Positions 48,315 to 64,000 of a stretch of 64,000 nucleotides of DNA are shown here, piece after piece. The DNA comes from Dehalococcoidia bacterium (GTDB taxonomy: Bacteria > Chloroflexota > Dehalococcoidia > GIF9 > UBA5629). Position 1 is the stretch's first letter. Each line of letters opens with the position of its first letter. The notes below the pieces were generated by a model. That model worked only from the letters and a program-made list of their open reading frames with translations, searched no databases and was not told the DNA's origin. The position numbers were made by a program, and so were the translations under genes. The DNA is taken from positions 96,001-160,000 of the forward strand of contig JBEKIW010000004.1 of assembly GCA_050011565.1 (NCBI GenBank). Reading direction: 5' to 3'.

Positions 48315-48323
48315 GGCTGCTGC

Positions 48324-48902
48324 TTAACTGCCTCCATAACATAGTACATCCATTACCACGGTGGCTGTGTCGTACTCTCCCTCTACTCCGGTAATCGTAA
48401 ATGTCACTCGGTTTATCTGGGATGTCGGCAGCTTCGTATCAAGTCCCAGGAGGAAGTTCTGGAACAGAGATACTTGCCCTTTGAGATTAAGCGTAATGGT
48501 CAATATCGGACCTATACTTCCAGGCGGTGTCGAAGTTGCTACCTTGGTTGCTGTGATGTATATATCATTGACCTCAGCCAGTTTTCGCAGGCTATCGAGT
48601 ATTTGTGGCGACCCCTGGGGGCTGGGGAAAGTGGCTTTAGCCGATTCTGTATCAGCTGTAGCCTGTGCCAGATCAGCTTCGAATTTAGCTTTTGGCGTTT
48701 GCACCGGGGTTACTATTTTCTGCAGGTTGGACAGGGTGGCTTCTAATTGACTTTGCCTTTCCGGCTGTTGTTGATTGACTACAAATAGGGGTACAAATAT
48801 GACCAAAAAAATGCCGATAACCAGCACTAGCTGGCTGATACGGCCCAGCTTGGGCAGCCTATCCAGAAAGCCTTTCTTCTTTTCCTGTCCGGGTTCCATC
48901 AT
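48324..48902 (-). CDS. PilO-like pilus alignment protein
   Basis: TM helix, coiled coil, P...ILDSLRKLA and LKG...FQNFL; position next to pilMN. Confidence 0.7.
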   Translation of the reverse strand: MMEPGQEKKKGFLDRLPKLGRISQLVLVIGIFLVIFVPLFVVNQQQPERQSQLEATLSNLQKIVTPVQTPKAKFEADLAQATADTESAKATFPSPQGSPQILDSLRKLAEVNDIYITATKVATSTPPGSIGPILTITLNLKGQVSLFQNFLLGLDTKLPTSQINRVTFTITGVEGEYDTATVVMDVLCYGGS

Positions 48903-49191
48903 TTTTGACTATCTTGTTATATAGATTTCTTTCCTGCCTTCAAGCCAGTCTAGTGTAGCACTTTTGCTCTAAAAAAAACAGAGGTAAAGATTTCTAAGGC
49001 CGGTTGGGGGAGAATGACGGGTTAAAAGTTAAAAAATGAGGTAACAAATTTTGCATCCATGTTCGGCATTCAGTTTTTTAGCTTTTGACTTGATACTACG
49101 AGTATCACCAGGCACGTGGCCTGTACATGTCTGCATTGCAAGGATTTAACCATGGGTTCCTTTTTGATTAATTTCTATTTCCGCCGGTCTC

Positions 49192-51237
49192 CTACTGAAC
49201 GCTATACATCATGCTGCCTACATCGAACTCCGAGCCAGGAGTAACTGCCGTGCTGGTAACCGAGAAGACTATATATACTATCATGATTCCATCGCTCACG
49301 GTCTGCGCACGAACCTGGGCCTGGGTATCGCCCGGCTGCACTATGCCGGATAGAGAGTTGTTATCTTTGTCTTTATTATATATATCCAAATCAACACCGC
49401 CGATTGTTCCCGTGGCCTCTCCATCCAGGGCAGACGGAGTAAATCCGGTGGACGTTGAATATGAATTGAATACATTATTATAGTAGTTATTGTCGCCGGA
49501 ATTATGGTCTCCTAGATAGACAAAGCCAGCAGAATGTTGCCCCTTGAACTGGAAAGAGTCGGGGGTAATTTGTGGATCGCCCTCGGCGACGAAGTAACCC
49601 ACCTTGGCATCGATGTTAGTAGAGGGAGCTTGAAAGCCAGAAATGGTGAATGTGGCTGAAACAGTGCTGCCGTTCCCCCAGAGATAGGCAAGATTGTCAT
49701 ATGTGTAGATTTGGTGTACCCCTACTGCCGTCTGTTGGCTGGAATAAATGATAATCATCGACCAGCCGGCGTTGGCTGCCTGGTACTTTAAATCCGAGGC
49801 ACACGTAGTAGCGGGGGTTGCGTTAACGGCACCCACGGTGAACATCGTGTTTCTGATGCCCGTAGGGGTTATCGCTTTTACCCTGTCGGAAACGTCGGCA
49901 AAACCGGCGTACTGGTAACCGTTTGAACCAGAGGTTGCCATATTGTAATATCTGTCAGCCGTTACTGTTCCGTCTGTTCCCACCAAATGTCCATTAACCT
50001 TGAGTGTCACTTGTGTATCGGGATTACTAGTGCTCAACCAGCCTGTCCAGTAAAGATATGCTTTCTCTATTTTGGCGTCTGATGGCCCGAAATCAGCATT
50101 GATTGTGGCACTGCTTTCTGTGTAGTATTTGCCGAGACAGTTCCATTCGCAATCATAATTACAGGGTGGTCCCGCTTTATAATTGGGATTACGAGTAGTC
50201 CCGGCATTATACCAGCAACATGTCATCAGGCTATTACCGATAGCTATATAATCTCCCTGGACAGCTGAGGCGCTGCCGGTAGTACCGCCGATATAGCGTG
50301 TCATCCCTTTGGGGGCGTAAGCCTCGATTGTGGTGTTATCAGTAGCGCCGGGTGTAAAGCTTGTGGACTTAACGTGATAGAAGCCTGAGATAGTATCCCA
50401 GGCAATGCTCTGATTGCCCAGCTGTATCCAGGGGAAAAATCCGTTGGCTCGTTTAAAAGGTGTAACGGTGTACTTGAAGGACAGCTGTACGCTGGGTGGG
50501 TACTTATCTGCCGGTATCAAACCACCTCCAGGAGGAAGAGGGGCGATGTCGGAGAGGTCTTTAAAAGTTCTACCCAAATAGTCCCATTTATAAATGGTGC
50601 CGCCGCGCCAGAACTGCTGGGAGGTATAATTCTTGACATATTGGTAGTTAGTTCCTGGCCCACCGATGGGAACGCCATTAATTTTTACATTACTAGTAAG
50701 ACTGTTAATACTGTATCCTTGAGGTAGCCAGACGCTAATATTGTCAAGTGGTGTTGTGGCAGCCGCAGTGGTGCTGACCTGGATAACGTAGGTGGAGTTA
50801 TCACTAATATTAAGAGCGCTAATAAGTGTCCAGTTGGCAGCACCGCTCGTAGGTTGCGTGTCTGGATAGCCAGTGAGGCCCTTTAAAAGCCAGGGAGTGC
50901 TAATATTCACCTGCACATCGTCATTGTTTACTTTCACTCTCTGAGCCGTCTGATTATCACTCAGCCAATATGTTATCCCAGATGTTGGCCAATAAAGTGT
51001 GGGATTGATTATTTTCGTTCGAGCATCACTTTGCAGATACCACATGGCGTTGTCTATACCGGCATCGGCGGCATACAGTTCCCGCGTGTGCAGGTTCACG
51101 CTTTGGGTGGCCTTGAGGTTGGTGGTGGCGAGAGAAAGAGTGGGGACAATGGCTGCGGCTCCGAGTAGCATCAGTAACAGCGCCATTGGTAAAGTTTGTC
51201 CGGCTTCTTTTGGCAACATTCGTCTTAGTAGCTTCAT
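49192..51237 (-). CDS. Large PilX-like minor pilin with C-terminal adhesin-like domains
   Basis: EAG|QTLPMALL...YAADAGID.A (PilX-type N-terminus); Thr/Ser/Asn-rich beta domains; SSATI...AYLYWTG. Confidence 0.7.
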   Translation of the reverse strand: MKLLRRMLPKEAGQTLPMALLLMLLGAAAIVPTLSLATTNLKATQSVNLHTRELYAADAGIDNAMWYLQSDARTKIINPTLYWPTSGITYWLSDNQTAQRVKVNNDDVQVNISTPWLLKGLTGYPDTQPTSGAANWTLISALNISDNSTYVIQVSTTAAATTPLDNISVWLPQGYSINSLTSNVKINGVPIGGPGTNYQYVKNYTSQQFWRGGTIYKWDYLGRTFKDLSDIAPLPPGGGLIPADKYPPSVQLSFKYTVTPFKRANGFFPWIQLGNQSIAWDTISGFYHVKSTSFTPGATDNTTIEAYAPKGMTRYIGGTTGSASAVQGDYIAIGNSLMTCCWYNAGTTRNPNYKAGPPCNYDCEWNCLGKYYTESSATINADFGPSDAKIEKAYLYWTGWLSTSNPDTQVTLKVNGHLVGTDGTVTADRYYNMATSGSNGYQYAGFADVSDRVKAITPTGIRNTMFTVGAVNATPATTCASDLKYQAANAGWSMIIIYSSQQTAVGVHQIYTYDNLAYLWGNGSTVSATFTISGFQAPSTNIDAKVGYFVAEGDPQITPDSFQFKGQHSAGFVYLGDHNSGDNNYYNNVFNSYSTSTGFTPSALDGEATGTIGGVDLDIYNKDKDNNSLSGIVQPGDTQAQVRAQTVSDGIMIVYIVFSVTSTAVTPGSEFDVGSMMYSVQ

Positions 51238-51239
51238 GT

Positions 51240-51776
51240 TCAACCTCCCCAATCCGTTGGTCGCGGGCTTATCTGATAAGTATCCTGCACATATCTTGTG
51301 CCATTCAACGAGGCTCTTATGTTCACAGTCAACTTCATTAAAGTAGTATCCCAGGTACAGTTAGTGTAGGCGGGGACGATATATTGAGCGATTAAAATTG
51401 CAGGTCCACCATTAAGACTACGCGTCAGCGTATTACCGTTGAGAATATATTGAATATCATTGTTATATTGAGTACCACTGATATTGTTCCAATCGCTCCA
51501 TTTAAGAGACAGGAAAACACCGGGTGTATTGCTGCTCACTACCTGCGCCATGACAGCATCGCGGGTAATCCAGTGACCGGCGTTCTGCACCTGGCGCAGA
51601 TTTACATTCCATTCGTCATTCTGCGAGGTGGTTCTCGTTATGGTGATTATGGATGCCGACATAACGCCGATAATAGCGCCGGCTATAGCCAGCGCCACCA
51701 ACATCTCGATGAGAGTAAACCCCTTCTCAGTTATCTTCGGCATTGTCTTTCTCTTTTCGCCGCTGTATGCCTTCAT
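51240..51776 (-). CDS. Minor type IV pilin (PilW-like)
   Basis: EKG|FTLIEMLVAL; alternative start at 51743. Confidence 0.85.
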   Translation of the reverse strand: MKAYSGEKRKTMPKITEKGFTLIEMLVALAIAGAIIGVMSASIITITRTTSQNDEWNVNLRQVQNAGHWITRDAVMAQVVSSNTPGVFLSLKWSDWNNISGTQYNNDIQYILNGNTLTRSLNGGPAILIAQYIVPAYTNCTWDTTLMKLTVNIRASLNGTRYVQDTYQISPRPTDWGG

Positions 51777-51840
51777 TTTGTCCAGATAATTTAGCTGCGA
51801 CCTGCAGTCCCGGCTCTTTCTGTGCTAGCGATAGCAGTGC

Positions 51841-52272
51841 TCATTGTCCGATCTTGTACTTATAGCCCTCCAGAGTGAAGTCTGGCTTTGGCTTGGTGCC
51901 ATGGGTAACAGTAACTGTTATTTTCTGGAGTCCTTCATCGGCACCAGTATGGAGGCCCTGAGGGTCCAGGGGTACGAACGCAATCCCTATGTGATATCCG
52001 GCAGGTTCTGTGATTTTGGTATATTGTCCGGTAACGCTGTAATTTTGTTGCTTTATAGACTCCATTTGCGATTTAGCTAAGCCTTCGGCGGATACTTGAT
52101 CCTGGCCGACCATTACCGCCTTAGATGAGGTTGACACAGCGACAAGGAAGACACCGGCAACTGCGGCTAAAAGGGCGAGCGCTATCAGGACTTCCACCAG
52201 ATTAAAACCTTGCTCGCCGTTGAGGGCAGAGCGGAAGCTCGGAAATGACCACCGGTGCCGGCTTTTAGTCAT
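51841..52272 (-). CDS. Minor type IV pilin (PilV-like)
   Basis: EQG|FNLVEVLIAL, A..LAKSQMESIK and LQKITVTV motifs. Confidence 0.85.
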   Translation of the reverse strand: MTKSRHRWSFPSFRSALNGEQGFNLVEVLIALALLAAVAGVFLVAVSTSSKAVMVGQDQVSAEGLAKSQMESIKQQNYSVTGQYTKITEPAGYHIGIAFVPLDPQGLHTGADEGLQKITVTVTHGTKPKPDFTLEGYKYKIGQ

Positions 52273-53490
52273 CTAGCCACCTGCTCCTCCTACCAGGCTA
52301 AGGGAGCTGTAGATGGGCATAAAAACAGCCAGGGCGAGGAAGCCAACTCCCACCCCCATGGCTATGGTCATCACCGGCTCAATCATGCCGAGCATGGTCT
52401 GTGTCCTTCTGTCGGCTTCGATTTCAAAGTTTTCAGCTACCATAATTAGTGACTCGTCCAGACTGCCTGTTTCCTCACCTACCTTGGTCATTTCCACCAT
52501 CATAGGCAAAAAGACAGGGTTGTTGCTCATTGGTTTAGACATTCCCTGGCCTCTGAGCATGCCCTGTTCCACCTGGCTCAAAGCTCTGGATACAACTCGA
52601 TTGCCAGTGGCTTGAATGGTCAGAGCCATAACTTCAGGAATTGGCAGACCGGCGCGAAATAACACCGATAAGCTGCGGCAAGCCCGTGCCAGCTCAGTTA
52701 ACAGATTCAGCCGACCGAGCAACGGCAACCGCAACATAATCCTATCGCGGTTATAACGTCCGGTTGGCGTCCGGCCGTAAAAGAAACCGACTGCAATCAA
52801 AGCGATGATGCCCACGAATAAAAATACGCCAAAATGTTGCAGGAAACCCATACTGGCGAGGAGAATCCTGGTGGGTAGAGGTAGCTCGCCGCCCAACGTG
52901 CTGAACATCTTAATCAGTGGCGGCAGCAGGACGGTGAGCATGATTATGGCAACAACGATTGCCAAACAGAAGACAATAACGGGATACATCATGGCCTGCT
53001 TGATTTTAGACATAGATGCGGTCAGACGCTCGGTGTAAGTAGCTAAGCTCTTAAGTACGGTTTCCAGCGAGCCAGTCTGCTCACCGACGCTAATCATCTT
53101 GCAGTAAAGCTTAGAAAAGACCTGAGGATGCTGGGCCAGAGCCAGCGATAGCGATTTGCCTCCTCGGAGGTCGTTGATTACTGCAAGAAGCACTCTCTTT
53201 AGCCCTGAGTCGGTTGACTGGTTTTGGAGCAACTCCAGGGCCTGGATGATACCGACGCCTGATTCCAAAAGCAGCGCCAGTTGCCGGGAGAAGGTAACCA
53301 TCTCCGCCGACTTAACCTTTTTCCGGAAAAATCCACCTGAGGATGAAAACAAGCGTGTGTCTGGCTTAAGGCTGACCACCCGGTAGCCGATGTTAGACAA
53401 CATATCCGCGGCTGCGCGCTCATCAGCCGCTGAAATCCTTCCCTTTACCATTTGCCGGTCTGCGGCATATCCTTGATAGGTATAGTCCAT
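52273..53490 (-). CDS. pilC: Type IV pilus platform protein (GspF/PilC)
   Basis: FSRQLALLLESG, GEQTGSL, AMMYP, LPLPT, GEETGSL and IEP motifs. Confidence 0.93.
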   Translation of the reverse strand: MDYTYQGYAADRQMVKGRISAADERAAADMLSNIGYRVVSLKPDTRLFSSSGGFFRKKVKSAEMVTFSRQLALLLESGVGIIQALELLQNQSTDSGLKRVLLAVINDLRGGKSLSLALAQHPQVFSKLYCKMISVGEQTGSLETVLKSLATYTERLTASMSKIKQAMMYPVIVFCLAIVVAIIMLTVLLPPLIKMFSTLGGELPLPTRILLASMGFLQHFGVFLFVGIIALIAVGFFYGRTPTGRYNRDRIMLRLPLLGRLNLLTELARACRSLSVLFRAGLPIPEVMALTIQATGNRVVSRALSQVEQGMLRGQGMSKPMSNNPVFLPMMVEMTKVGEETGSLDESLIMVAENFEIEADRRTQTMLGMIEPVMTIAMGVGVGFLALAVFMPIYSSLSLVGGAGG

Positions 53491-53567
53491 ATCACTAACC
53501 TCCAAATTAGATAACGAGGCTAACGCCCCACGGCCATATTTCAGAGCCGCCAGTATATTTCATTGCT

Positions 53568-55976
53568 TTAATCACCTACGGAATAGGCGTTGCGTAGCAC
53601 TTCATACGGTGTGGTGATGCCGGCCCCGGCCTTAAGCATGCCGTCTTTGGACAGAGTTATCATTCCTTCCTCAATCGCCTGGGCACGAATGTCAGCAGCA
53701 GTAGCACCGGTAACAATCAATCGCCTGATTTCATCGCTCATGGTCAGAATTTCAAAAAGACCTGTCCTACCCAGATAACCGGTGTACGTACATAATTTGC
53801 AGCCGGCACCGTAATCGAACTCGAGTCGTTCCTCACCTGTTTCGCGGTAATAAGCTTTCTGCTCTACCAGAGGCGCTTCGACCTTGCGAGCGCAGCTGGT
53901 ACAGACCCGCCGAACCATTCGTTGGGCCGCGATACAGATAACGGCTGAGCATATGAGGAAAGGCTCAACACCGAGGTCGATAAGTCGAAATAGTACGCCT
54001 ACCGTATCATTGGCATGGACTGAAGATAGCACCAGATGGCCGGTTAGAGCAGACTGGGTGGCTATGTCAGCGGTCTCACTATCTCGAATCTCACCGACCA
54101 GTATAACGTCGGGATCAAGCCGTACTATAGCCCGCAATCCACTGGCAAAGGTTACACCGGCCTTGGTATTTATTTGTATCTGGTTTATACCCTGGAAACG
54201 ATACTCCACGGGGTCTTCGATGGTAATGATGTTGCGGCCTACCTTATCGAGTGAGTTGACCGCAGCATAAAGCGTTGTTGTCTTGCCGGCGCCGGTAGGG
54301 CCACTGAGCAATAGCATGCCATAAGGTGCCATAAGCATACGCTCGAACTGTTCCTGGCTCTCCGGCAGGAAACCTAGTTGAGACAGAGATAGGGCGGCCA
54401 TTGATTTATCCAGAAGGCGAAGTACTGCCGTTTCACCGTGGACAGTGCTGATACTGGCTACCCGAATGTCAATATCTTTGCCCGTGGCGACAAGTGAGAA
54501 CTGACCATCTTGAGGGCGGCGTGGGTCAGCGATATTCATACCGGCCAGAATTTTAATGCGGGAAATAAGCGGTCCGTGAGCACCAATGGGCAGTGAGGTG
54601 ACCTCGTGAAGTATACCATCGATACGATATCGGACACGTAACCTATCTTCTTCAGGTTCGATATGAATATCGGAAGCACGGGCTTTTACCGCCTCTTCAA
54701 CTAATAAATTAAGCGCCTTGGCTATCGGAGAACCATCGGCTATCTCGGCAGCAGCTTTATCTACAGGTATTATCCCTGAGGCTACTGCTGCCAGGTTGAA
54801 CTGTTTGTCTATTTCGCCAAACTTGCCTATTTCGCCAAACTGTTTGCCTACTTCGCCAGGGGTTTTGTAGTTGAAATCAATGGCTGCTTGCACATCCGCG
54901 AGTGTTGCCGGCACCGGCTCGATTCTCATTTTGGTTCTAGCAGCCAGGGCTTGTATAGCCAAAATATCGCCAGGGTTGACCATGGCTACACGTAAAGTAT
55001 TATCGTTAACCGCCAATGGTACTGCATTATACTTTCTAGCCAGTTTTTCGGGGATGATACTAAGGACTTCCGGCGACGGGGCTTGAATCGGTACGTTAAT
55101 TTTAGCGGCGCCGGAAACCAGCCCGGTAACCACCGGCGGTTCAGCGCGTATCGATTCAGCTACTTTGACTGCGCCTGTTTCCTTGCTTGCTTGTGCAGCT
55201 GCCTTTTTAGCTGTATGGGGTTCAGCGGCTGGTTTCTCTTGTGTTGCCTTACCAATTTCAAAGACTTTTATCTGCTGTTTCTCGGCGAATTGCCTGGCTT
55301 CATCGCTGAGTTTCGGTGATGCCACAATCAGACTGCGGACAATGCCCGTGTCTTTAGCTCTAGAATCAATTAAAGATAACGGCTCTATACCCACCTCATC
55401 GTCCGCCGAGAGAAAATCTATGCTGACTGGATGGGTAATAAGGCCATCGTCCACATAGGCCAAGACATCAAAGATATGCTCGGCTTCTGATATGCCATTT
55501 ACCTTAACTTTTTCCTCGGTTTTGTAGCCACGTTCGGTCAATGATTTTAGTAGCTGGGCTCTAGTGCCGAATTCAACAGGCTTGTGGTGTTTGGCTGCGG
55601 GTGGCGCTGCACTCAGGAATGCATTTAGACCCTTTTCATCAAAAACTTTTATGCTTTCTTGCTGGGCGAAGTTGGCGGCCATGGCACCAAGTTTGGGTAT
55701 AGCGATAAAGACTCTGTCAGCTATGCCGGCATCATTTGCTTTCTCATCGAAATTGAATAGTGCACCCAGGCCTACTTCTTCACGCTGGCTGACAGATGAC
55801 CCGATGGCTACATCGTAACTGAAAAGGCCATCGTCTTTATGTGCCATCATAGCAAACTTATGCTCAGTTCCCGAACTGCCCTTGACTTTAGCATCCATGG
55901 TTACTTCGTAGCCATGCTGCTTCAGGCGTTGCGCGAACTGGCTCTCGCGTGTTTGTTGGGAATCTGCCTTCGCCAT
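53568..55976 (-). CDS. pilB: Type IV pilus extension ATPase (PilB/GspE) with an N-terminal tandem PD-(D/E)xK-fold module
   Basis: ASDIHIEP, PQDG, GPTGAGKTTT, TIEDPVE, DPDVILVGEIRD, TGHLVLS, and tetracysteine motif; T2SSE_N-like IPEKLARKYNAVP; extra ~240-aa N-terminus. Confidence 0.92.
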   Translation of the reverse strand: MAKADSQQTRESQFAQRLKQHGYEVTMDAKVKGSSGTEHKFAMMAHKDDGLFSYDVAIGSSVSQREEVGLGALFNFDEKANDAGIADRVFIAIPKLGAMAANFAQQESIKVFDEKGLNAFLSAAPPAAKHHKPVEFGTRAQLLKSLTERGYKTEEKVKVNGISEAEHIFDVLAYVDDGLITHPVSIDFLSADDEVGIEPLSLIDSRAKDTGIVRSLIVASPKLSDEARQFAEKQQIKVFEIGKATQEKPAAEPHTAKKAAAQASKETGAVKVAESIRAEPPVVTGLVSGAAKINVPIQAPSPEVLSIIPEKLARKYNAVPLAVNDNTLRVAMVNPGDILAIQALAARTKMRIEPVPATLADVQAAIDFNYKTPGEVGKQFGEIGKFGEIDKQFNLAAVASGIIPVDKAAAEIADGSPIAKALNLLVEEAVKARASDIHIEPEEDRLRVRYRIDGILHEVTSLPIGAHGPLISRIKILAGMNIADPRRPQDGQFSLVATGKDIDIRVASISTVHGETAVLRLLDKSMAALSLSQLGFLPESQEQFERMLMAPYGMLLLSGPTGAGKTTTLYAAVNSLDKVGRNIITIEDPVEYRFQGINQIQINTKAGVTFASGLRAIVRLDPDVILVGEIRDSETADIATQSALTGHLVLSSVHANDTVGVLFRLIDLGVEPFLICSAVICIAAQRMVRRVCTSCARKVEAPLVEQKAYYRETGEERLEFDYGAGCKLCTYTGYLGRTGLFEILTMSDEIRRLIVTGATAADIRAQAIEEGMITLSKDGMLKAGAGITTPYEVLRNAYSVGD

Positions 55977-56022
55977 TTGTAATTTCGCCTCGTTTTAAAA
56001 ACAAGTATATCCCGAGACACAC

Positions 56023-56061
56023 AACCCCATGAAGCCAAATTTTCATTGGTTTCACGGGGTT
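56023..56061 (-). terminator. Stem-loop between Roadblock gene 1 and pilB
   Basis: aaccccatgaagccaa...ttggtttcacggggtt; weak U tract. Confidence 0.45.
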
Positions 56062-56085
56062 TATCTCTTTGTCGTCGTTTTAAAT

Positions 56086-56511
56086 TCAGGGGGCTATAGT
56101 TCCCATACCATCCCTTCGGGGCAACGGCTCATGTCCGGGCAGCGCCCGCTCCAGTCTTGGGGCATAATTGTTGTTAGCCATGCGTATCATGCCCAGCGGC
56201 ACGGTGCTAGGGGCACTGACAACCATAAAGCAAGCCCCGTCAGCTATGGGTTTTATCACCTGGTAGGTGAAGGCGGTACTGAAAATGACATCGTCGAGCT
56301 TGCCAAATTCAGTAGTCGATTGTTTGAAGGCATCGATTGCTCCATTAATCGTCTGAATAAACCCGCCCAGCGAGTCGGGTGGCAGTTTATTATCGGGTGA
56401 GTCCCAGGATGAAAGCAACATCCCATCATTATCGGCAACTGCTATCACCCAGGTTCCTGCCAGTCCCCCCGCCATCTCAGACAACAACTCCTTCATATTG
56501 GTATTAGGCAT
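56086..56511 (-). CDS. Roadblock/LC7 (MglB-like) protein 1
   Basis: Pattern helix-LAG.W...VADNDGMLL, long helix, beta strands, and the PLGMIR terminal helix; GGAGGTG ribosome-binding site. Confidence 0.75.
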   Translation of the reverse strand: MPNTNMKELLSEMAGGLAGTWVIAVADNDGMLLSSWDSPDNKLPPDSLGGFIQTINGAIDAFKQSTTEFGKLDDVIFSTAFTYQVIKPIADGACFMVVSAPSTVPLGMIRMANNNYAPRLERALPGHEPLPRRDGMGTIAP

Positions 56512-56597
56512 TAAAGCTCACCTCCTTTCTCCACTTTTCCGGTATCGAAAATAACTCCATTCTCCAAGCTTTTCAGATACAAAATCAACTTGGTTCA

Positions 56598-56662
56598 AGT
56601 GTAAGCAAGTCAAGTATGTTTGTCAAGCAAAACGATAGGTTCTATGTAGCACTTTAGTCCTA
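56598..56662 (-). promoter_or_regulatory. Promoter plus upstream palindromic box
   Basis: TTGACA-17-TACACT; box TAGCAC-TTTA-GTCCTA lies 20 bp upstream of the -35. Confidence 0.65.
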
Positions 56663-56717
56663 TGTGGAACTTAGTGGAATACCGTAGCGATACAGGTTAA
56701 CAACTGCAGGTTTGACT

Positions 56718-57113
56718 TCAGGTGGCTATTGGCTCGCGGCCGGGAATGGCCTGCTCCAGCCTGGGGACATAATTTTTGAACGCGGTACGTATCGAACCCA
56801 GAGATATCGTCCTCGACGCGTCCGCTACTATAAAGCAAGAACCATTGCAAATCGGCTTAAGCATCATATAACTTAAGGATGTACCCAGTACGATATCATC
56901 GAGCTTGCTGAATCCATTGGACGATTGTTTGAACGTGCTGATGGTGGACTTAATCTGTTGAATGAACTCACCCAGCGCTTCAGGTGAGAGCTTATTTTCG
57001 GATGACTCCCAGTAAGCAAGAACCATGCAATCACTGTCTGTTACTGCTAACAGCCGGATTCCCTCGAGTCCACTTGCCATTTCAGCCAACAGGTCCTTCA
57101 TGCTGATTGCCAT
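56718..57113 (-). CDS. Roadblock/LC7 protein 2 (lacks the C-terminal tail)
   Basis: Paralogue: LEGIRLLAVTDSDCMVL...SLGSIR. Confidence 0.75.
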   Translation of the reverse strand: MAISMKDLLAEMASGLEGIRLLAVTDSDCMVLAYWESSENKLSPEALGEFIQQIKSTISTFKQSSNGFSKLDDIVLGTSLSYMMLKPICNGSCFIVADASRTISLGSIRTAFKNYVPRLEQAIPGREPIAT

Positions 57114-57308
57114 TGTAGATTAGTTCCTCTTTAATCCGATTATTGTTATCTTACAGCGTTGAGTGAATTAGCTCTCAAATATTTGCCTGATATCTGCTTC
57201 CGCCGTCTATCTCTGGTATCATCGCAAGTAAGGATTATTTTTGAAGAATAACACACACTGTAATATATAAATTACGTAGGTAGTGTGTCTTTGCTGGTCT
57301 GTTTAACT

Positions 57309-57734
57309 TCAGGGGATGATGGTCCCCATGCCGTCCTTGCGCGGCGATGGCTGGCGGCCGGGCAGAGATTGCTCCAGTCTCGGGGCATAATTGTTGATAG
57401 TCGTACGTATCATGCCCAGAGGCACACTCCTGGGAGCGCTAACTACTATAAAGCAGGTGGCATCAGCTATAGGCTTAATTATCTGGTGGACCTGAGTGGT
57501 ACTGAATATGATATCCTTGAAGCTGCTGAAGCCTACTGGCGACTGTTTAAATATGACCACCGCGTTATTAAATATCTGCATAAATCCGCCCAATGCTTCG
57601 GGAGAAACTTTATTATCGGGCCCCTGCCAGGTTGCCAGGACCATGCTATCACTATCTATTACCGTAACCTGCCAGATTCCTGGCACTCCCCGTGCCATTT
57701 CGGACACTATATCCTTCATATTACCGTCTGGCAC
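57309..57734 (-). CDS. Roadblock/LC7 protein 3
   Basis: VPGIWQVTVIDSDSMVL...PLGMIR; GTG start after AAGGAGGT. Confidence 0.75.
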   Translation of the reverse strand: MPDGNMKDIVSEMARGVPGIWQVTVIDSDSMVLATWQGPDNKVSPEALGGFMQIFNNAVVIFKQSPVGFSSFKDIIFSTTQVHQIIKPIADATCFIVVSAPRSVPLGMIRTTINNYAPRLEQSLPGRQPSPRKDGMGTIIP

Positions 57735-57791
57735 TAAGTGTTACCTCCTTTCTTAAATTAAAGATGTTTAATCTAAATAAGTTGTCTGGCT

Positions 57792-58217
57792 TCAGGAAAC
57801 GACTGTTCCAATGCTATCCCTTCGCGGCAGTGCCTCATGCCCGGGCAGAGCCTGCTCCAGTTTGGGGGTATAATTATTAGCTGCCATGCGTATCATTCCC
57901 AGCGGCACGGTGTTTGGGGCATTGACTACCATAAAGCACGCCCCATTGGCCATGGGCTTTATCACGACGGAGGAAAAACCCATACTGAATATGACATCAT
58001 CGAGCTGACCGAATCCGGTAGTCGATTGTTTGAAAGCATCGATTGCTTCATTAACCGTTTGAATAAACCCGCCCAGCATTTCAGGTGGGAGTTTATTCCC
58101 GGGCGAGCTCCAGGATGAAAGCAGCATCCCATCACTATCGGCGACTATAATCACCCAGGCTCCTTCCAGTCCCCCGGCCATTTCTGACAATATGTCCTTC
58201 ATTTTTATATCAGGCAT
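57792..58217 (-). CDS. Roadblock/LC7 protein 4
   Basis: LEGAWVIIVADSDGMLL...PLGMIR; closest to protein 1. Confidence 0.75.
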   Translation of the reverse strand: MPDIKMKDILSEMAGGLEGAWVIIVADSDGMLLSSWSSPGNKLPPEMLGGFIQTVNEAIDAFKQSTTGFGQLDDVIFSMGFSSVVIKPMANGACFMVVNAPNTVPLGMIRMAANNYTPKLEQALPGHEALPRRDSIGTVVS

Positions 58218-58334
58218 TAAAGACCACCCCCTTTCGCTTTATTCCTGACCATGGAAGATAATCTAAGTTCCATATCTAACCAATAAATCACCCGCGCTTC
58301 CTGTATCGAGCGCCGGTATATTTAATTTCATCAA

Positions 58335-58400
58335 AGTGTAGGCATGTTCTCGTACGTTTGTCAAGTTCGTTAACGTATTGGATATAGTACCTTAGTCCTA
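58335..58400 (-). promoter_or_regulatory. Promoter plus upstream palindromic box
   Basis: TTGACA-18-TACACT; box TAGTAC-CTTA-GTCCTA lies 20 bp upstream of the -35. Confidence 0.65.
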
Positions 58401-58479
58401 TAGACTACTTTGGGAGGGATAGATGAATGTACCCAATTCATGCTGTATGAGGGTGAGGGTAGCTACGGACGCCAGTATT

Positions 58480-59841
58480 TTAAGCTAATTTACCGGGGTC
58501 GCTAACTTCGATGGTTTTGATTCTCTGATATTGGGCAAATTGCCTGGCTTCCTGACTGAGCTGGGGGCAGACCAGTAACAGCTTGTCATGAATACCGACG
58601 TCGTAGGCCCTGGTGTCAAATGAAGATACAGTATTGAAACTGATTTCGTCATGCGCTATCAAGATATTTATAGCTAATGTGTGGTTGATGATGCCATCAT
58701 TTTTGATAGCCAGTATATCGAAGACATGCTCTACTCCGGACCTACCCATGATTTTGGCTTTTTCCTCAAAACTATAGCCGGAATTTTTCAAGTGTTCCAA
58801 GAGTTTAGCTTTGGTTTCAAAGACGAAAGGCTGGTTGCCCGATTGCTTTTGTGTCGCTAGCGGGGGCGATTTCAAAAGGAGTTCTATGTCCTTTGCCTCA
58901 ATGACTTTAATCCGCTGTTGCCGGGCAAATTGACCGGCTTCGGGGCTGAGCTTGGGAACGACCACCAAAACCTTATCGTGTATGCCCAGGTCATATACCT
59001 TGTTATCGAAGGCAAAAACTTCGGCTAAACTTATTTCTTGTCCCTGGCTGTCGACAAGTATGCCAACGCCGATGGTGTAATTTACCAGGCCATCGCTACG
59101 CTGTGCCAGGATATCCAGTACATGTTTAGCTCCGGACTTAGTAGTACCATTGACTTTGGCACTTTCAATAACATCATAGCCCCGGCTTCTGAGAAAATCT
59201 GCGAATCTCGGTTTCTCAGTGAGTTCGAATTGAAGCTGGCGTTTTTTACCTGCATTTAGGCGATAGGAATATAGAACTATCTCTTTGGCTTCGCCTTCCG
59301 GGAATAAGTATGAGCACTGGAGGCACTGCATATTGAAGGCAGCGTCTTTTGAAATCGCACCGCATTCACGGCATTTGTAGCTGATGCCCAGACTCTGATA
59401 GTCGGTGCCGAGAAACCTGAGCTCCTGTCGGCATTTGGGGCAGACGTATTTACCGTTATTTGCGTAATCTTCTTCAAGGCTGTTATTGCGGCAGGCAAGA
59501 TGTTCCAGTATTCTACCTTTGGCTATGTTGCCTGAGCCGCACTTGGGGCAGCCAAGTCCTGGTTTTAAATTTGGAGACTGGCATTTGGGACAAAATCGAA
59601 TATTTTCATGTAAATTTCTCTCCAGAATGTCCTCATTAGCCAGAAATTCCAGGGTGTTTACGGCCTCCAAAGTTGTTGACTCAAGGATTTTTTCTGCTTG
59701 AGGGTAACCGAAACCATCCTTGGTCGACGCGTTGATGCTGGGTTTGACTTCGCTTATTCTCCCGGACATAATCTCCTGGATAAGCTTCATAGCCTTATTA
59801 TTTTGCTTTACCATTCTAACTGCATCAATGACTTCGACCAT
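58480..59841 (-). CDS. TackOD1-like multi-zinc-ribbon protein with two C-terminal Mrr-like PD-(D/E)xK-fold domains
   Basis: GYP...LE.LA..DILER, then CPKC, CPKC, HLAC, CPKC, CREC, CLQC; twice GY...K..G.SG..H..DILA...D.GI.D...P.LS.EA.QFA..Q.IK. Confidence 0.7.
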   Translation of the reverse strand: MVEVIDAVRMVKQNNKAMKLIQEIMSGRISEVKPSINASTKDGFGYPQAEKILESTTLEAVNTLEFLANEDILERNLHENIRFCPKCQSPNLKPGLGCPKCGSGNIAKGRILEHLACRNNSLEEDYANNGKYVCPKCRQELRFLGTDYQSLGISYKCRECGAISKDAAFNMQCLQCSYLFPEGEAKEIVLYSYRLNAGKKRQLQFELTEKPRFADFLRSRGYDVIESAKVNGTTKSGAKHVLDILAQRSDGLVNYTIGVGILVDSQGQEISLAEVFAFDNKVYDLGIHDKVLVVVPKLSPEAGQFARQQRIKVIEAKDIELLLKSPPLATQKQSGNQPFVFETKAKLLEHLKNSGYSFEEKAKIMGRSGVEHVFDILAIKNDGIINHTLAINILIAHDEISFNTVSSFDTRAYDVGIHDKLLLVCPQLSQEARQFAQYQRIKTIEVSDPGKLA

Positions 59842-59875
59842 TATTTTCCCTCGATACTTAAGTTCCAGCTAAGAA

Positions 59876-60030
59876 AGTTTAAATGAAACGTAGCCAAGTT
59901 GCAATACATTTATCTGGCTTCATACAACATTTGGTCATGTTTGAGGTAGTACATTAGTCCCGAAAGGGCATTATGCAGCCGTATTTTGTACCAGGAGCAG
60001 TTTGACAACCGTAAAGCATTAATATAAAAT
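59876..60030. promoter_or_regulatory. Divergent promoters with a central palindromic box
   Basis: Minus strand TTGCAA-17-TAAACT; plus strand TTGACA(60002)-17-TAAAAT; box TAGTAC-ATTA-GTCCCG at 59947-59962. Confidence 0.6.
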
Positions 60031-60065
60031 AGTACCTAACTAGCAGTTGTTTAAAACAACAACAA

Positions 60066-60268
60066 TGATAGATTTGCAAGGTTTCACAAATGTTCGCGAT
60101 GCTGCCAGGCAGATTGGCATACACGAGGAATCGCTACGGCGGCTTCTGAGGCAGGGGAGTCCGTCCGGGGAGAAAATAGGTGGCCAGTGGTTCATAAGCA
60201 AGGAGCAACTGGCTCTATTTGCTAACACATATAATGCCAAGACCGGTAAAAGAATGAAGCTTATATGA
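60066..60268 (+). CDS. Small MerR/excisionase-like (HTH_17, BldC-like) DNA-binding protein
   Basis: NVRDAARQIGIHEESLRRLLRQG...EKIGGQWFI. Confidence 0.8.
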
Positions 60269-60277
60269 AGGTGCGCT

Positions 60278-63200
60278 ATTAGCAGAAAAACTTACATCGG
60301 CAGTTTCAAAATAATTCTGTCCTTGGTATTGCTGTCCAGTTTGATATCTCTGGCTGACGTTAAACAAGTTTCGGCGAACCCGGGCACGCTATTGTGGACT
60401 ACCGTTGATACACCGAGCCTGCTGAATAACGTCATAGTCAGCCCATCGGAGATAAATTTTATTGCCATTGGCTCTGATGACAACACTTTTTATGCTGTGG
60501 ATATACCGGACTTCAATACTTCCGGTAGCCGCGGCAGATTATTTAAATCGAGAGATGGCGGTGTTACCTGGCCGAATGAACTGAGCGCCCAACTGATAGC
60601 CGCCGGTGCTTCTATGCCGGTCTGGAATATAGCCGTAGCTCCGGATGACGTGAACTTCCTTGTTGCCATAACCGATGGCAGCGTCCCGCCGCCCCTCGTC
60701 GGGCCAAAGCAGGTATATATCTCCATGGATGGTGGAGCCACTTGGCAGAATGCCAATTTCGCTGCTGCCGCTGGCGAATGGATTAGCTGTGTGGACATTT
60801 CTGTTATGTACGGTGGAACTAACCGTGATATTGCCATAGGCACCAGAACTGGCACCGGGGCGGGCAAAGTATACGTCAGAAAGTCCACTAGTTTCGGTGC
60901 CTGGGCAGACCAAGGTCTAGTGCCATCCGACGTGGTAGCGCTGAAGTTCTCGCCTGCGTATACCAGCGATTCCAGCCTGGTGGTTGTCTCATCGGACACA
61001 GGCACTTTTTTACGTGTTGGCTTCCGCGACACAGCAAATAACACTACCGACTGGGTTGCTTGGGGTGCGCCGGCAGAGATTAGCACTACAGGAATATCAC
61101 CTACAGCAGCGCAGATTATAACTGCTGACCTGGAGCTGCCGTCGGACTTCTCAGGGCAGGATGTTGCCTTGCGTCATTTTTATGTTAGCACCGACGCCAC
61201 TCCGAACGTTCTGGGCGGTGTTTACCGCGTTGACGATAATGTGCCCAACCTCATAAATCCACCAACCCCGGGCAGGATTTCCAGCATTGCTTATTTTGGC
61301 TCTACCACTGCAGGTACGCTTCTCGCAGGCGAAGTCACTGCTGGAGAACTTGCTCCTACTCCTTCTTCATATGGGGTTCATGTATGGCGGACTTCAAATC
61401 CTAACGTAACTGTAGGTACGCCTACATGGCTAAGTTCTGATGCCCGCAGGTCTCCAACTGGCGGCGCTGGTTCCGGTTTAGCCAACGCTCAAGTGTCCTC
61501 GAGCCCCGATGGGAGCAGGGCTTACTGTGGTACCAACTCGGCCTGTCTGGGTATATTTACCGTCCCAACTGGCGCAGTTGTTTGTTCAACGTGGCCTGAT
61601 GGCTACCTTAATGGAGTCGCACTTGATGAATCTGCCTTCTCGGTCAGCCCTTATTCGCTGGCTTATTCACAGCAGCTCGCTGCCTACAGCAAGACAGAAG
61701 ATACCGATATCGGCAAGATCTGGAACCAGCTTAGCCTTATAGATACTGAAATGGACTCACTCTCTGATGTTGCGGCTCTGGAAGCTCCCGAAACTGGTGA
61801 GAATCTAGCTCCCGTGGATTACAATGTACTCTATCTGTTTTCTATAAACGCGAACATACCTGTAAGTTTAAGTTTCGATAGCCTGTGGCGGAGCACCAGT
61901 GACCCGCTGGGCAGGACATGGGAGAGAGTATTGTGCATTGCCACCAGTGACACGGGCACAATACTCCGCGTTAAACAGACGTCTTACGAAGAAACGGATA
62001 GAAGCGACGTCATCGTTTTCGCCGACCTTGGTCCTGAGGTAGTCGGTATTTCCGCGAATGAGGGACAAGCATGGGACATTCGTAGTCTAACCACCGTAAC
62101 CGATTTAGCTCTAGCCAGCGATGCAATCATTTATGTTCTAAACAATACGGTCATATACAAGTATGAACGGGAAGGTACCAATTGGGTGTTTAAAAATAAG
62201 GTAAATACCGGTCTTGATGCTGGACATACTATAGCAGTACCGTTGAAAAACCCTTCAGGTGCAGACATAGTGCTGGTGGGTGAGGCTGGGACGCCTAACG
62301 GTTTGGGCAGGATAGCCTATGCCGATTTCTCCCAGCCTATTGTGACAGTCAATCCGCCTATATCCGAGCGAATAGCACCACCGATAGCCGGTGATGCACA
62401 TGTCATTTTCGATGATAAATATGAGCAGAATGGAATAATATACAATGCCACACGTGACCCCATCGGTGGGAACGGCAAGATCTACCGCTGGACTATTGGT
62501 AAAAGCACCGCCTGGAGTGAACTGGAGCCCCCAAACAGTGCTTTCTACGGTCTGGTTCAACGGAATGATGTTCTGTACGGGGCATGGAAAAAGCCAGAGG
62601 TTCCAGCAATTGCTGCTAATAGTGCCGGCGTTGACCGGACGCTTTATCCCCGACGTTTTGTGCCGCCACCTCCAGAATGGGATTACCTGACTGAGGGGCT
62701 TCTCGCCGGCGTCGGCGTCATTTTCACTCGTGAGCCTAGTTCACTTAAGATATCAAGCAATAAGTTCAACAGCTTGTGGGCAATTGATAACAACACCTAT
62801 AATTTTGCCAACAATACAGGTCGCCTCTGGGAATATACAGATACTTTAGCTAAAGTAGGACCATGGACAACCTCGCCAGCAAGTGGTGATTTCATTCCTG
62901 TTGACCCGGTGTCAGGTAGGGCTTTAGAGGTAAATTTCGCGTGGCGAAGCCTCAGCAATGCTTTGGCATATGAATTAGAGATAGCTAATGACAGCGATTT
63001 CACTATAGTAGTGTTGCGAAACGAGTATATTGTCCCGGTTGACTCGCTGTCGCCAGAAGTTTATTTCCCGGCTGGCGGACTGGTGCCCACACCTCTGTCT
63101 GGTATTGCCGCTTTTGGGAATCTTGAAGCTGGTCACACCTATTATTGGCGGGTCAGGGCAAGGACTACTGTTAATGGTGAAGCTACACGAAGCCCCTGGT

Positions 63201-64000
63201 CAGCGACGATGTATTTTACGGTAGGGGCTGGTTTGCCAATAGCGTCACGATATCCGACTATGACTTTATTCAGCCCTATGTATGGTGCTAAAAACGTATC
63301 CAATTCTCCGGCTTTTTCCTGGTCAGGAATGCCCGGAACCACCAAATACGAGTTTGTTCTGGCTAAAGATGCCGCCTTGCAAAAGGTGATAGTTAAAGTT
63401 GATGTACCTTCGACGTCATACCTTTACGATGGCAAGCTCGATTACAATACTGGCTATTATTGGCAGGTGCGTGCAATTGAGCCTGTGGTCAGCGACCCCA
63501 GCCCGATAGGCACCTTCACTGTGGTTGCTGAGCAGAAACCTGTAACGCCGGTAGTAGAAACACCCGCGCCGATACCTTCCTGGGTTTGGTGGATAATCGC
63601 CATATTTGCTGCTCTGGTGGTGGCTATAATTGCATTTACGATGGTAAAGCCCAGCTACGTGAGACCCGCCGGGGGCGGTAAGCTGTTTAAGATAGAACCT
63701 ATCTCTAAAGCCGAAAGCGGTAAGCTGGAAAAGGTAGAACCTCTCTTAGGCAAACCTAAGAACCCTATCGCTAAAATCTGGGGTTCCATAATCATGGCAA
63801 TCAGGCGATGGCGTTACTTGAGGAAGCGTGGTGACGGCGAGCCTGTGGAACCTATCTCTAAAGCCGAAGGCGGTAAGCTAGATAACGTGAAACCTATCGT
63901 TAACAAACTTAAGAGCCGTATCGCCAAAATCTGGGCGTCCATAACCATGGCAGTCAGGCGATGGGGAAACTTCAAGAGGCGTGCTGATACCGAGTCTGAG
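60278..64000 (+). CDS. Large Asp-box beta-propeller + FN3 cell-surface (S-layer-like) protein with a C-terminal TM helix and repeated cytoplasmic tail; runs off the window
   Basis: I translated 1241 stop-free codons. They contain a signal peptide, SRDGGVTW, SMDGGATW, DESAFS...WNQLSLIDT, LEAGHTYYWRVRA, YYWQVRA, and the TM segment WVWWIIAIFAALVVAIIAF. Absent from the ORF track because there is no stop in the window. Confidence 0.85.
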   Translation, partial: MSRKTYIGSFKIILSLVLLSSLISLADVKQVSANPGTLLWTTVDTPSLLNNVIVSPSEINFIAIGSDDNTFYAVDIPDFNTSGSRGRLFKSRDGGVTWPNELSAQLIAAGASMPVWNIAVAPDDVNFLVAITDGSVPPPLVGPKQVYISMDGGATWQNANFAAAAGEWISCVDISVMYGGTNRDIAIGTRTGTGAGKVYVRKSTSFGAWADQGLVPSDVVALKFSPAYTSDSSLVVVSSDTGTFLRVGFRDTANNTTDWVAWGAPAEISTTGISPTAAQIITADLELPSDFSGQDVALRHFYVSTDATPNVLGGVYRVDDNVPNLINPPTPGRISSIAYFGSTTAGTLLAGEVTAGELAPTPSSYGVHVWRTSNPNVTVGTPTWLSSDARRSPTGGAGSGLANAQVSSSPDGSRAYCGTNSACLGIFTVPTGAVVCSTWPDGYLNGVALDESAFSVSPYSLAYSQQLAAYSKTEDTDIGKIWNQLSLIDTEMDSLSDVAALEAPETGENLAPVDYNVLYLFSINANIPVSLSFDSLWRSTSDPLGRTWERVLCIATSDTGTILRVKQTSYEETDRSDVIVFADLGPEVVGISANEGQAWDIRSLTTVTDLALASDAIIYVLNNTVIYKYEREGTNWVFKNKVNTGLDAGHTIAVPLKNPSGADIVLVGEAGTPNGLGRIAYADFSQPIVTVNPPISERIAPPIAGDAHVIFDDKYEQNGIIYNATRDPIGGNGKIYRWTIGKSTAWSELEPPNSAFYGLVQRNDVLYGAWKKPEVPAIAANSAGVDRTLYPRRFVPPPPEWDYLTEGLLAGVGVIFTREPSSLKISSNKFNSLWAIDNNTYNFANNTGRLWEYTDTLAKVGPWTTSPASGDFIPVDPVSGRALEVNFAWRSLSNALAYELEIANDSDFTIVVLRNEYIVPVDSLSPEVYFPAGGLVPTPLSGIAAFGNLEAGHTYYWRVRARTTVNGEATRSPWSATMYFTVGAGLPIASRYPTMTLFSPMYGAKNVSNSPAFSWSGMPGTTKYEFVLAKDAALQKVIVKVDVPSTSYLYDGKLDYNTGYYWQVRAIEPVVSDPSPIGTFTVVAEQKPVTPVVETPAPIPSWVWWIIAIFAALVVAIIAFTMVKPSYVRPAGGGKLFKIEPISKAESGKLEKVEPLLGKPKNPIAKIWGSIIMAIRRWRYLRKRGDGEPVEPISKAEGGKLDNVKPIVNKLKSRIAKIWASITMAVRRWGNFKRRADTESE
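63695..64000 (+). repeat. 153-bp (51-aa) tandem repeat in the cytoplasmic tail
   Basis: gaacctatctctaaagccgaa occurs at 63695 and 63848. Confidence 0.85.

Follow-up and report, generated by a model that had tools for sequence, protein, structure and literature searches.

The type IV pilus motors of model bacteria are controlled by cyclic di-GMP (c-di-GMP), Pil-Chp and MglA/MglB. The MglA/MglB pair controls pilus polarity, while c-di-GMP controls both PilB/MshE, through the MshEN domain, and cellulose synthase, through PilZ; FimX-PilZ-PilB adaptors are also known. The locus described here occupies positions 53568-60268 of a 64,000-nucleotide stretch (hereafter the window) of the genome of a Dehalococcoidia bacterium (assembly GCA_050011565.1, contig JBEKIW010000004.1, positions 96,001 to 160,000), where six minus-strand genes encode a zinc-ribbon protein with a TackOD1 domain, four small Roadblock-fold proteins and the extension ATPase PilB. 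The zinc-ribbon protein and PilB share a module, termed RE2, which is a tandem of two Mrr-like restriction-endonuclease-fold (REase-fold, or RE) domains. The type IV pilus operon has here a genuine accessory layer, which is conserved and restricted to one lineage. A tentative interpretation, to which we give slightly less than an even chance, is that this layer is cytoplasmic and specific to Dehalococcoidia, that it is added to an otherwise ordinary pilus operon and that RE2 and the Roadblock proteins control PilB post-translationally. The proposed arrangement resembles the c-di-GMP systems in that one signalling module would address both a pilus ATPase and a processive family 2 glycosyltransferase (GT2) synthase, with adaptors on the N-terminus of PilB, and the PilB of the window, like the c-di-GMP-controlled PilB/MshE, also contains MshEN. 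However, the folds are unrelated, and where an input can be named it is a receiver domain, not a cyclic dinucleotide.

The closest published relatives of the individual components are archaeal. According to the accessible part of the survey by Makarova, Koonin and Albers (2016, PMC4858521), the uncharacterised arCOG06883 "double Zn-ribbon" proteins belong mostly to thaumarchaeal pilus loci, and the likewise uncharacterised arCOG02603 Roadblock proteins frequently have their genes in varied type IV pilus loci. The TackOD1 domain was named by Galperin et al. (2018, PMC5847659), whose text, as far as it is accessible, lists the architectures TackOD1, REC-TackOD1 and REC-wHTH-TackOD1 (REC, receiver domain), describes a pattern of five CxxC and one HxxC motifs, and mentions the domain in "some bacteria" with an obscure function. 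The protein family of the window has the same Pfam domain, the same Cys/His motifs, response-regulator output and coding within pilus loci as these archaeal proteins (accessible parts of PMC4858521 and PMC5847659), and a homologous C-terminal RE domain is found in archaeal TackOD1 members as well (10 of 10 representatives of 307-358 amino acids). It differs in its bacterial host, in its association with a pilus of the PilB/PilC/PilM-N type, and in that the RE domain is in tandem, with a paralogous tandem fused to PilB. The Roadblock genes resemble arCOG02603 in lying within pilus loci with no function assigned (accessible part of PMC4858521); unlike in the archaeal loci, the host is bacterial and the genes are always placed directly upstream of the RE2-bearing PilB (RE2-PilB; 5/5 genomes).

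Hence the first-pass annotation of this DNA, which had considered the system undescribed, was right in part. The individual ingredients have already been noticed, uncharacterised, in archaeal pilus loci, since TackOD1/arCOG06883 and Roadblock proteins in such loci are in print (accessible parts of PMC4858521 and PMC5847659), but the RE domain and the PilB fusion are not mentioned there: the terms "restriction endonuclease" and "Mrr" have 0 occurrences in the accessible main texts of both papers. A search of the open-access full-text literature returned nothing relevant on a REase-like PilB N-terminus or on pilus regulation in Dehalococcoidia, and the RE module, its fusion to PilB, GTPase-less Roadblock arrays in bacteria and the cross-domain GT2 pairing described below were not found in it.

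The evidence for the shared module comes from direct comparison of the two proteins. Residues 9-241 of PilB align by BLASTP with residues 208-446 of the zinc-ribbon (TackOD1-RE2) protein with 99/239 identities (41%, E 4e-56), a similarity far beyond chance, and a second, out-of-register match joins PilB 137-240 to residues 198-315 of the partner (37%, E 1e-16). Because the latter is shifted by one repeat, each RE2 module is an internal tandem repeat, which bears out the collinear two-domain modules proposed from the sequence in the first-pass annotation. The Pfam family Mrr_cat (cut-off 21 bits) matches the TackOD1-RE2 protein at 28.1 and PilB at 23.7 bits. Within the whole genome scanned (2.0 Mb, 8 contigs, 99.2% complete), RE2 is confined to these two genes, and since the sole match of an own-genome Mrr_cat search was the repeat of PilB itself (19.4 bits), the genome offers no bona fide Mrr against which RE2 could be aligned. 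In a likelihood tree of 43 modules, a single branch (SH-aLRT, the Shimodaira-Hasegawa-like approximate likelihood ratio test, 98) separates the 24 PilB-type modules, without exception, from the 19 TackOD1-type modules. The two copies of the window sit in different groups, that of PilB together with the PilB-type modules of other genomes. This split makes the shared module an old paralogy and rules out a recent in-genome duplication as its source.

Each half of RE2 was modelled with AlphaFold (62 homologues) as helix, three strands, helix, strand, helix, strand, and thus is predicted to contain the alpha-beta-beta-beta-alpha-beta core of the Mrr_cat/PD-(D/E)xK fold. The Foldseek search against the Protein Data Bank (PDB), a check that had been proposed for the partner protein, returned restriction-endonuclease-fold structures, namely AF1548 (1y88, E 7.9e-6), MspJI, the R2 endonuclease domain, the nuclease domains of Cdn1/Can2 and EndoMS. 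In a protein atlas the best scores of the RE2 part were 0.88-0.89, to small archaeal Mrr_cat-like clusters, which are below the 0.9 mark and serve as leads only. RE2 relatives also match the Pfam inactive-REase family NA-iREase1. Like the inactive domains NA-iREase1 (PF22722) and Mrr_cat (PF04471), RE2 combines the PD-(D/E)xK fold with the loss of the catalytic Lys motif; unlike them, it forms a small family, is in tandem, and is fused to PilB and TackOD1 rather than to NACHT NTPases.

The catalytic positions, set by the strands of the model and the Mrr consensus and not by structural superposition, were examined in 43 modules, drawn from the window plus 40 loci. The canonical [DEQ]xK of beta-3 is present in 0/43 modules in repeat 1 and in 0/43 in repeat 2, whereas the catalytic Asp of beta-2 is retained in 40/43 and 38/43, respectively; the full PD-(D/E)xK signature, which requires both, is therefore lacking. 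The Glu of the former active site is kept in 25-26 of 43 repeats and the His/Tyr in nearly all, and helix alpha-2 has a nearly invariant Lys and a nearly invariant Asp. In repeat 1 of the window PilB, Ala replaces the conserved Asp. Judging from these residues, RE2 is likely a catalytically inactive pseudo-nuclease, as the first-pass annotation had called it, although the alpha-2 Lys/Asp together with the retained acidic pair may leave room for a ligand-binding or non-canonical site. Relocation of the Lys is known in some PD-(D/E)xK enzymes and PilB is a cytoplasmic protein. With the fold present and two acidic residues kept, one could still suppose that RE2 handles DNA or works as a nuclease, for instance on DNA imported by the pilus or in defence against pilus-dependent phages. 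In view of the missing beta-3 motif, the loss of the Asp in the window PilB, the acidic nature of the modules (median isoelectric point, pI, 5.3 for the PilB type and 5.9 for the TackOD1 type) and the cytoplasmic location of PilB, we regard this as highly improbable.

The partner carrying the second RE2 copy is a genuine member of TackOD1 (126.7 bits on residues 12-195; cut-off of PF18551, 32). Its domain contains 11 invariant Cys, arranged as five CxxC and one HxxC, and the positions C84, C87, C98, C101, H114, C117, C134, C137, C157, C160, C173 and C176 are invariant in 62 homologues. The TackOD1 part is basic (pI 8.2). A profile of the family found no significant match among the sequences of solved structures, zinc-ribbon noise only. 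There are 471 homologues at E <= 0.001, whose names are missing or wrong; the best 120 match over the full length or almost all of it, none bears a useful name, and those that are labelled come from Dehalococcoidia or Chloroflexota. No receiver domain precedes TackOD1 in the window protein, where TackOD1 begins at residue 12; REC-bearing paralogues occur in 3/3 checked loci of the same family and none in the genome of the window.

The PilB of the window likewise has every mark of a PilB/GspE-type extension ATPase, namely T2SSE and MshEN domains, a Walker A motif, a tetracysteine and a T2SSF gene downstream. The Walker A sequence GPTGAGKTTT and residues C692, C695, C726 and C729 are invariant in 22 PilB homologues. 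Its core is nearest (66-73%) to PilBs of the same family that have no RE2 and that have probably lost it. As regards the identity of the gene products, the first-pass annotation therefore holds: PilB and the TackOD1 zinc-ribbon protein are confirmed by Pfam, and the Roadblock fold, at a sub-threshold Pfam score, by a structure model. Unusual forms of PilB were encountered in other genomes. One (L044:1570-4866, G100:C72) is a PilB of ~1100 amino acids in which RE2 is present twice, making four REase-fold domains, and which has one Roadblock gene upstream; a 1105-amino-acid frame of G295:C222 was listed with it. Another, of 631 amino acids (L024:16334-18229, G241:C10), has a single RE domain and is intermediate between the RE2-bearing and RE2-less forms.

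The distribution of RE2 is narrow. It is carried by 42 of 301 sampled genomes of the class; 24 of 401 sampled genomes of the phylum match it, every one labelled as the window's own or as of the same family, order or class, with 0 outside the class. Among 1.84 billion protein representatives, 208 relatives were found at E <= 0.001. In 30 of the 42 module-bearing genomes RE2 stands at the N-terminus of a PilB-sized frame (by table reading; 23 loci were confirmed), in 21 it is part of a stand-alone TackOD1-RE2 protein, in one of them broken by an in-frame TGA, and a longer form occurs in 4. The PilB-type form is accompanied by a stand-alone one in 10, and RE2-PilB without the zinc-ribbon protein, the commonest form, is found in 20. 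One family has RE2-PilB only (10/10 sampled genomes, 9 of them single-contig), so that experimentally tractable relatives may exist. Of the 301 class genomes, 113 contain a close PilB core at E <= 1e-100 and 5, by profile search, Roadblock proteins of this family.

Gene neighbourhoods, compared by BLAST of the window proteins against the open reading frames (ORFs) of fetched loci, link these parts to pili. The stand-alone TackOD1-RE2 gene lies within a pilus cluster in 16/16 fetched loci of the class and in 4/4 complete loci of metagenome-assembled genomes (MAGs). In seven of the class loci (7/7 of the same and the neighbouring family) it ends 19-27 nucleotides ahead of an RE2-less PilB of 518-526 amino acids, in the order divergent large surface protein, TackOD1-RE2, short PilB, PilC and the rest, with no Roadblock genes. 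In the 9 further loci it is found elsewhere in the pilus cluster, beside a prepilin peptidase or a pilin, and RE2-PilB is 10-20 kb away where the contig allows. The Roadblock genes are located directly upstream of RE2-PilB in all five class genomes that have them, in 1, 2, 2, 2 and 4 copies, and 4/5 of these genomes, all with RE2-PilB, contain no TackOD1 protein. A scan of all species genomes for the four paralogues yielded six loci in five "uncultured Dehalococcoidales" MAGs. Four of the MAG loci have exactly the layout of the window (surface protein, TackOD1-RE2, four Roadblock genes, RE2-PilB, PilC) at 70-86% protein identity; in a fifth related MAG locus the contig ends before the Roadblock array. 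The order of the paralogues is kept in 5/5 MAG loci. A lone fifth Roadblock copy (L085, one MAG) has metabolic neighbours and is uninformative.

RE2-PilB, the zinc-ribbon protein and the Roadblock genes are separable, modular parts, and the expected co-occurrence has been found with a restriction: the parts recur together with type IV pilus genes, but the full trio was found only in the window and the four closely related MAG loci. The condition under which the first-pass annotation would have been refuted, that the components do not co-occur elsewhere, therefore does not hold, although the system is modular. That they occur separately in many genomes might suggest a merely historical adjacency, with shared ancestry and no joint function. 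Synteny is nevertheless kept across families and at 70-82% protein identity, the reading frames of all four Roadblock paralogues and of the two RE2 genes stay open, and the Roadblock genes adjoin RE2-PilB in each genome that has them, so we consider this very unlikely. Some frames in other genomes are interrupted: in a nearly closed, two-contig genome (L032:17333-18693, G014:C2) the TackOD1-RE2 gene is broken by one in-frame TGA, which may reflect loss of the gene's function (a pseudogene), recoding or an error of sequencing, while the RE2-PilB 14 kb away is intact, and in two related MAGs (L082:2772-5193 and L084:9207-9763) PilB (590 + 213 amino acids) and the third Roadblock paralogue (121 + 57 amino acids), respectively, are each split into two frames by frameshifts or assembly errors.

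The TackOD1-RE family reaches beyond pilus loci. When ten long representatives were scanned, eight proved to combine TackOD1 with Mrr_cat, six of these also with Response_reg, and the other two were a PilB fragment and an unrelated Ig-repeat protein. TackOD1-RE thus has a response-regulator output architecture. REC-TackOD1-RE2 proteins are found in 3/3 loci of the window's own family (L029, L030, L031). At L031:6183-13049 the operon comprises a GAF histidine kinase, an OmpR-type regulator, REC-TackOD1-RE2, a membrane GT2 glycosyltransferase and a sugar epimerase; its neighbours were domain-scanned, and those of L029 and L030, in the same order, were placed by homology to the L031 genes. All ten short representatives (307-358 amino acids) consist of TackOD1 and a single RE domain, three of the clusters being named as WOR-3 bacterium, Bathyarchaeota and Nitrososphaerales/Thaumarchaeota. 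The former active-site Asp and the alpha-2 Lys and Asp are invariant in 11/11 cross-domain TackOD1-RE proteins. In the single complete thaumarchaeal locus compared (L086:6517-8968) TackOD1-RE is followed by a GT2 glycosyltransferase, and a short thaumarchaeal contig (L087:3-2061) has the 3' part of the TackOD1-RE gene followed by the same GT2. The thaumarchaeal and Dehalococcoidia GT2 proteins are 41% identical (E ~1e-103). The TackOD1-RE/GT2 gene pair is thus shared by both domains. TackOD1-RE stands ahead of a pilus ATPase in some loci and of a polysaccharide synthase in others, and the similarity of the two GT2 proteins across Thaumarchaeota and Dehalococcoidia suggests a wider surface-polymer regulator that crossed the domain boundary. 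A 107-amino-acid ORF after the thaumarchaeal GT2 was tried as a small RE protein and rejected at a low probability.

On these grounds the following mechanism is envisaged. The TackOD1-RE proteins would regulate, post-translationally, the envelope machine encoded immediately downstream, be it PilB or a polysaccharide synthase of the GT2 type. TackOD1-RE and PilB would communicate with the RE fold as their handle, by homotypic RE2-RE2 association or by competition for a single site of the pilus platform. As dimeric adaptors that need no GTPase, the Roadblock proteins would work on the N-terminus of PilB that bears RE2 and tune how the motor is assembled, where it is placed or how active it is. 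That RE2 is fused to PilB in 30 of the 42 genomes argues for coupling at the protein level, and this fusion may be a hint from nature that the motor protein itself is what TackOD1-RE proteins act on. The complex of the full TackOD1-RE2 protein with PilB 1-245 was predicted with interface scores (ipSAE) of 0.02 and 0.02, which count neither for nor against contact. As to the mechanism, be it docking, shared sensing or transcription control, we infer it rather than observe it. The locus turns the role of TackOD1, obscure according to the accessible part of PMC5847659, into a simple binding question. In a bolder form of the proposal, Bacteria and Archaea would share the degenerate REase fold as an adaptor dedicated to motors. 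TackOD1-RE proteins would be two-component outputs that work directly and non-transcriptionally on envelope-polymer machines, an RE-RE grip would hold PilB in Dehalococcoidia, and Roadblock dimers would control a secretion-type ATPase in a GTPase-free manner. This bolder form seems to us unlikely; if true, it would mean a new post-translational switch for pili and exopolysaccharide and a first function for TackOD1.

Several observations weigh against RE2-mediated control of PilB. PilB lacks RE2 in 7/7 of the related TackOD1-RE2 loci, so that RE2 on PilB is dispensable in those seven lineages, and among the 113 genomes of the class that have a close PilB, ~70 carry none of the parts. No pilus operon lies within ~7 kb of TackOD1-RE in L086, where a PIN-T2SSE-KH ATPase is found ~3.5 kb upstream. 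The GT2 that follows REC-TackOD1-RE2 and the thaumarchaeal TackOD1-RE has no RE domain by BLAST and Pfam, so that RE-RE contact cannot be how targets are recognised in all contexts. The same genes argue against an interpretation specific to pili alone, as two TackOD1-RE forms precede RE-less GT2 genes. Furthermore, the retained Asp and the near-invariant alpha-2 Lys/Asp would suit a working pocket (for a ligand, a metal or non-canonical catalysis) better than a docking scaffold, and TackOD1, being basic (pI 8.2) and rich in zinc ribbons, may bind DNA.

The pocket leads to another explanation, in which RE2 is a shared sensor of a metal, nucleotide or small ligand and PilB and the TackOD1 protein respond in parallel, without contact. 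The conservation of the former active-site residues and of the alpha-2 Lys/Asp, including their invariance in all 11 cross-domain proteins, would be explained by it, and it accounts for both the RE-less GT2 targets and the RE2-less PilBs. It is less economical where REC-TackOD1-RE2 already has a receiver domain as its input, the analysis suggests no ligand and the Foldseek matches are nuclease domains only; a sensor of this kind is therefore not what we expect, but it deserves weight. The basic pI leads to a third explanation. The REase fold is often found to bind DNA. If the TackOD1-RE2 protein is a DNA-binding transcription regulator of the downstream genes (pilB-pilC-pilins or the GT2 operon), with the RE2 of PilB unrelated, its zinc ribbons, its position, always upstream of the presumed target and on the same strand, and its response-regulator output architecture (see also the accessible part of PMC5847659) would all be as expected. 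Such a role is distinctly doubtful: RE2 itself is acidic, the REC-TackOD1-RE2 operon already has an OmpR-type DNA-binding regulator, and a DNA-binding module on the pilus ATPase of 30 genomes would have no obvious rationale. Post-translational control of PilB consequently stays our tentative choice.

The Roadblock proteins raise a separate issue. By sequence the four proteins fall short of Roadblock/LC7/MglB PF03259 (best 15.1 bits, cut-off 23), and a profile of the paralogues found nothing significant among solved-structure sequences (E > 0.5), while JGI labels close homologues of these small proteins as Roadblock/LC7/MglB family. The AlphaFold model of paralogue d (pLDDT, predicted local distance difference test, 80) has helices at 2-16, 46-63 and 106-123 and strands at 22-27, 32-37, 75-78, 82-89 and 94-101, predicting the alpha-beta-beta-alpha-beta-beta-beta-alpha Roadblock fold. 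Foldseek placed it closest to MglB (3t1r/1j3w; template modelling (TM) score 0.74-0.78, E ~1e-8), followed by LAMTOR/MP1-p14 and Asgard Roadblock proteins, with 129 PDB chains at E <= 0.001. The description of four Roadblock paralogues between the two genes on the pil strand is thereby confirmed. Paralogues a, b and d (57792-57846, 57309-57363 and 56086-56140) carry a C-terminal tail with the consensus LPGxEPxPRRDGMGTxxP, which is modelled as disordered; it is also kept in metagenome orthologues, and absent from paralogue c and from the two-gene arrays of another family. By the model, this tail could be a short docking motif.

The array has features in common with the MglA/MglB polarity module (3t1r, 1j3w, 6izw), such as the Roadblock fold and a genetic link to type IV pili. 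It is unlike that module in having four paralogues, three with the conserved disordered tail, a sequence score under the Pfam cut-off and no MglA-like GTPase in the genome by Pfam Ras/Arf/Roc. In the genome, no small Ras-like GTPase was found, as these models match only frames of 366-625 amino acids (an MglA-specific model was not used), nor does any of the nine Roadblock-bearing pilus loci contain a GTPase gene, a comparison made by BLAST with window proteins only, so that a novel neighbour could escape it. The MglA analogy drawn by the first-pass annotation thus fails at the GTPase. A role like that of MglB in Myxococcus and Thermus, activating the GTPase that sets polarity, is what the best structural matches of the Roadblock proteins and the MglA/MglB role in polarity would suggest, and the missing GTPase makes it most improbable. 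The GTPase-independent adaptor role is kept as the preferred one.

The features of the locus are listed in Table 1. Positions 59842-60268 form a non-coding divergent region of 427 bases ahead of the next gene, which begins at 60323 on the plus strand. Near the pilus operon are a major-pilin-like gene, the prepilin peptidase gene and that of a Wzy_C/TPR protein, and a PilT-like gene is on a different contig.

Table 1. Features of the TackOD1-RE2/Roadblock/PilB locus (window coordinates).
Feature	Coordinates	Strand	Evidence and remarks
TackOD1-RE2 protein, 453 aa	58480-59841	-	Pfam TackOD1 126.7 bits, Mrr_cat 28.1 bits; AlphaFold pLDDT 86, pTM (predicted TM) 0.70
TackOD1 domain, residues 12-195	59257-59808	-	Pfam; five CxxC and one HxxC
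REase-fold repeat 1 of TackOD1-RE2 protein, residues ~209-325	58867-59217	-	BLASTP, Pfam, AlphaFold, Foldseek
REase-fold repeat 2 of TackOD1-RE2 protein, residues ~340-453	58483-58824	-	BLASTP, AlphaFold, Foldseek
Roadblock-fold paralogue a, 141 aa	57792-58217	-	50-74% identity of the other paralogues to a
Roadblock-fold paralogue b, 141 aa, GTG start	57309-57734	-	Paralogue alignment; orthologue also second in 5/5 related MAG loci
Roadblock-fold paralogue c, 131 aa, without the C-terminal tail of a, b, d	56718-57113	-	Paralogue alignment
Roadblock-fold paralogue d, 141 aa, immediately ahead of pilB	56086-56511	-	AlphaFold pLDDT 80; Foldseek MglB
PilB extension ATPase, 802 aa, N-terminal RE2 extension	53568-55976	-	Pfam T2SSE (residues 413-795) 416.2 bits, MshEN (residues 300-373) 61.1 bits; then pilC
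RE2 module of PilB, residues ~10-242 (repeat 1, 10-125; repeat 2, 135-242)	55251-55949	-	BLASTP, module tree
PilC platform protein	52273-53505	-	Pfam T2SSF 187.6 bits
Rest of pilus operon, including a 686-aa protein and a 192-aa PilO-like protein	46917-52272	-	Pfam; order kept in related loci
Two N_methyl pilins	51841-52272, 51240-51776	-	Pfam N_methyl
PilM-PilN fusion	46917-48314	-	Pfam PilM_2, PilN
Prepilin peptidase (PilD)	41599-42402	-	Pfam A24_N_bact, Peptidase_A24

A promoter and terminator scan of 53400-60400 gave 13 promoter-like sites against 11.5 expected, which is not above chance, and no operon boundaries are drawn from it. Identical hexamers TTGACA and TACACT, spaced by 17-18 nucleotides, precede the first (58335-58364, minus strand) and the fourth (56598-56626, minus strand) Roadblock genes; this pair would fit a duplication of the upstream region, in a scan that overall is at chance level. 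A look for expression turned up no RNA data set with the sequence; the DNA data sets that contain it are metagenomes of peat and sediment, and two of them may be its source.

The gene at 60323-64000, divergent from the operon, runs off the window and encodes a protein of more than 1226 amino acids, predicted to be surface-exposed or membrane-anchored, whose sole Pfam match is weak and Ig-like. Its position is kept in the same and the neighbouring family at 34-63% identity. Past the end of the window (by 0.6-6.6 kb; L088:2588-8572) integrase-/resolvase-like genes are followed by a 956-amino-acid hybrid PAS-GAF-HisKA-HATPase-REC kinase. This kinase, 3.7 kb past the window, was set aside as an input to the operon since the integrase-like genes intervene, and is probably unrelated to it. 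Finally, flanked by the prepilin peptidase gene and the major-pilin-like one, an 846-amino-acid membrane protein (43410-45950, minus strand) shows matches to Wzy_C (O-antigen-ligase-like) and TPR, and may be a pilin glycosylation enzyme.

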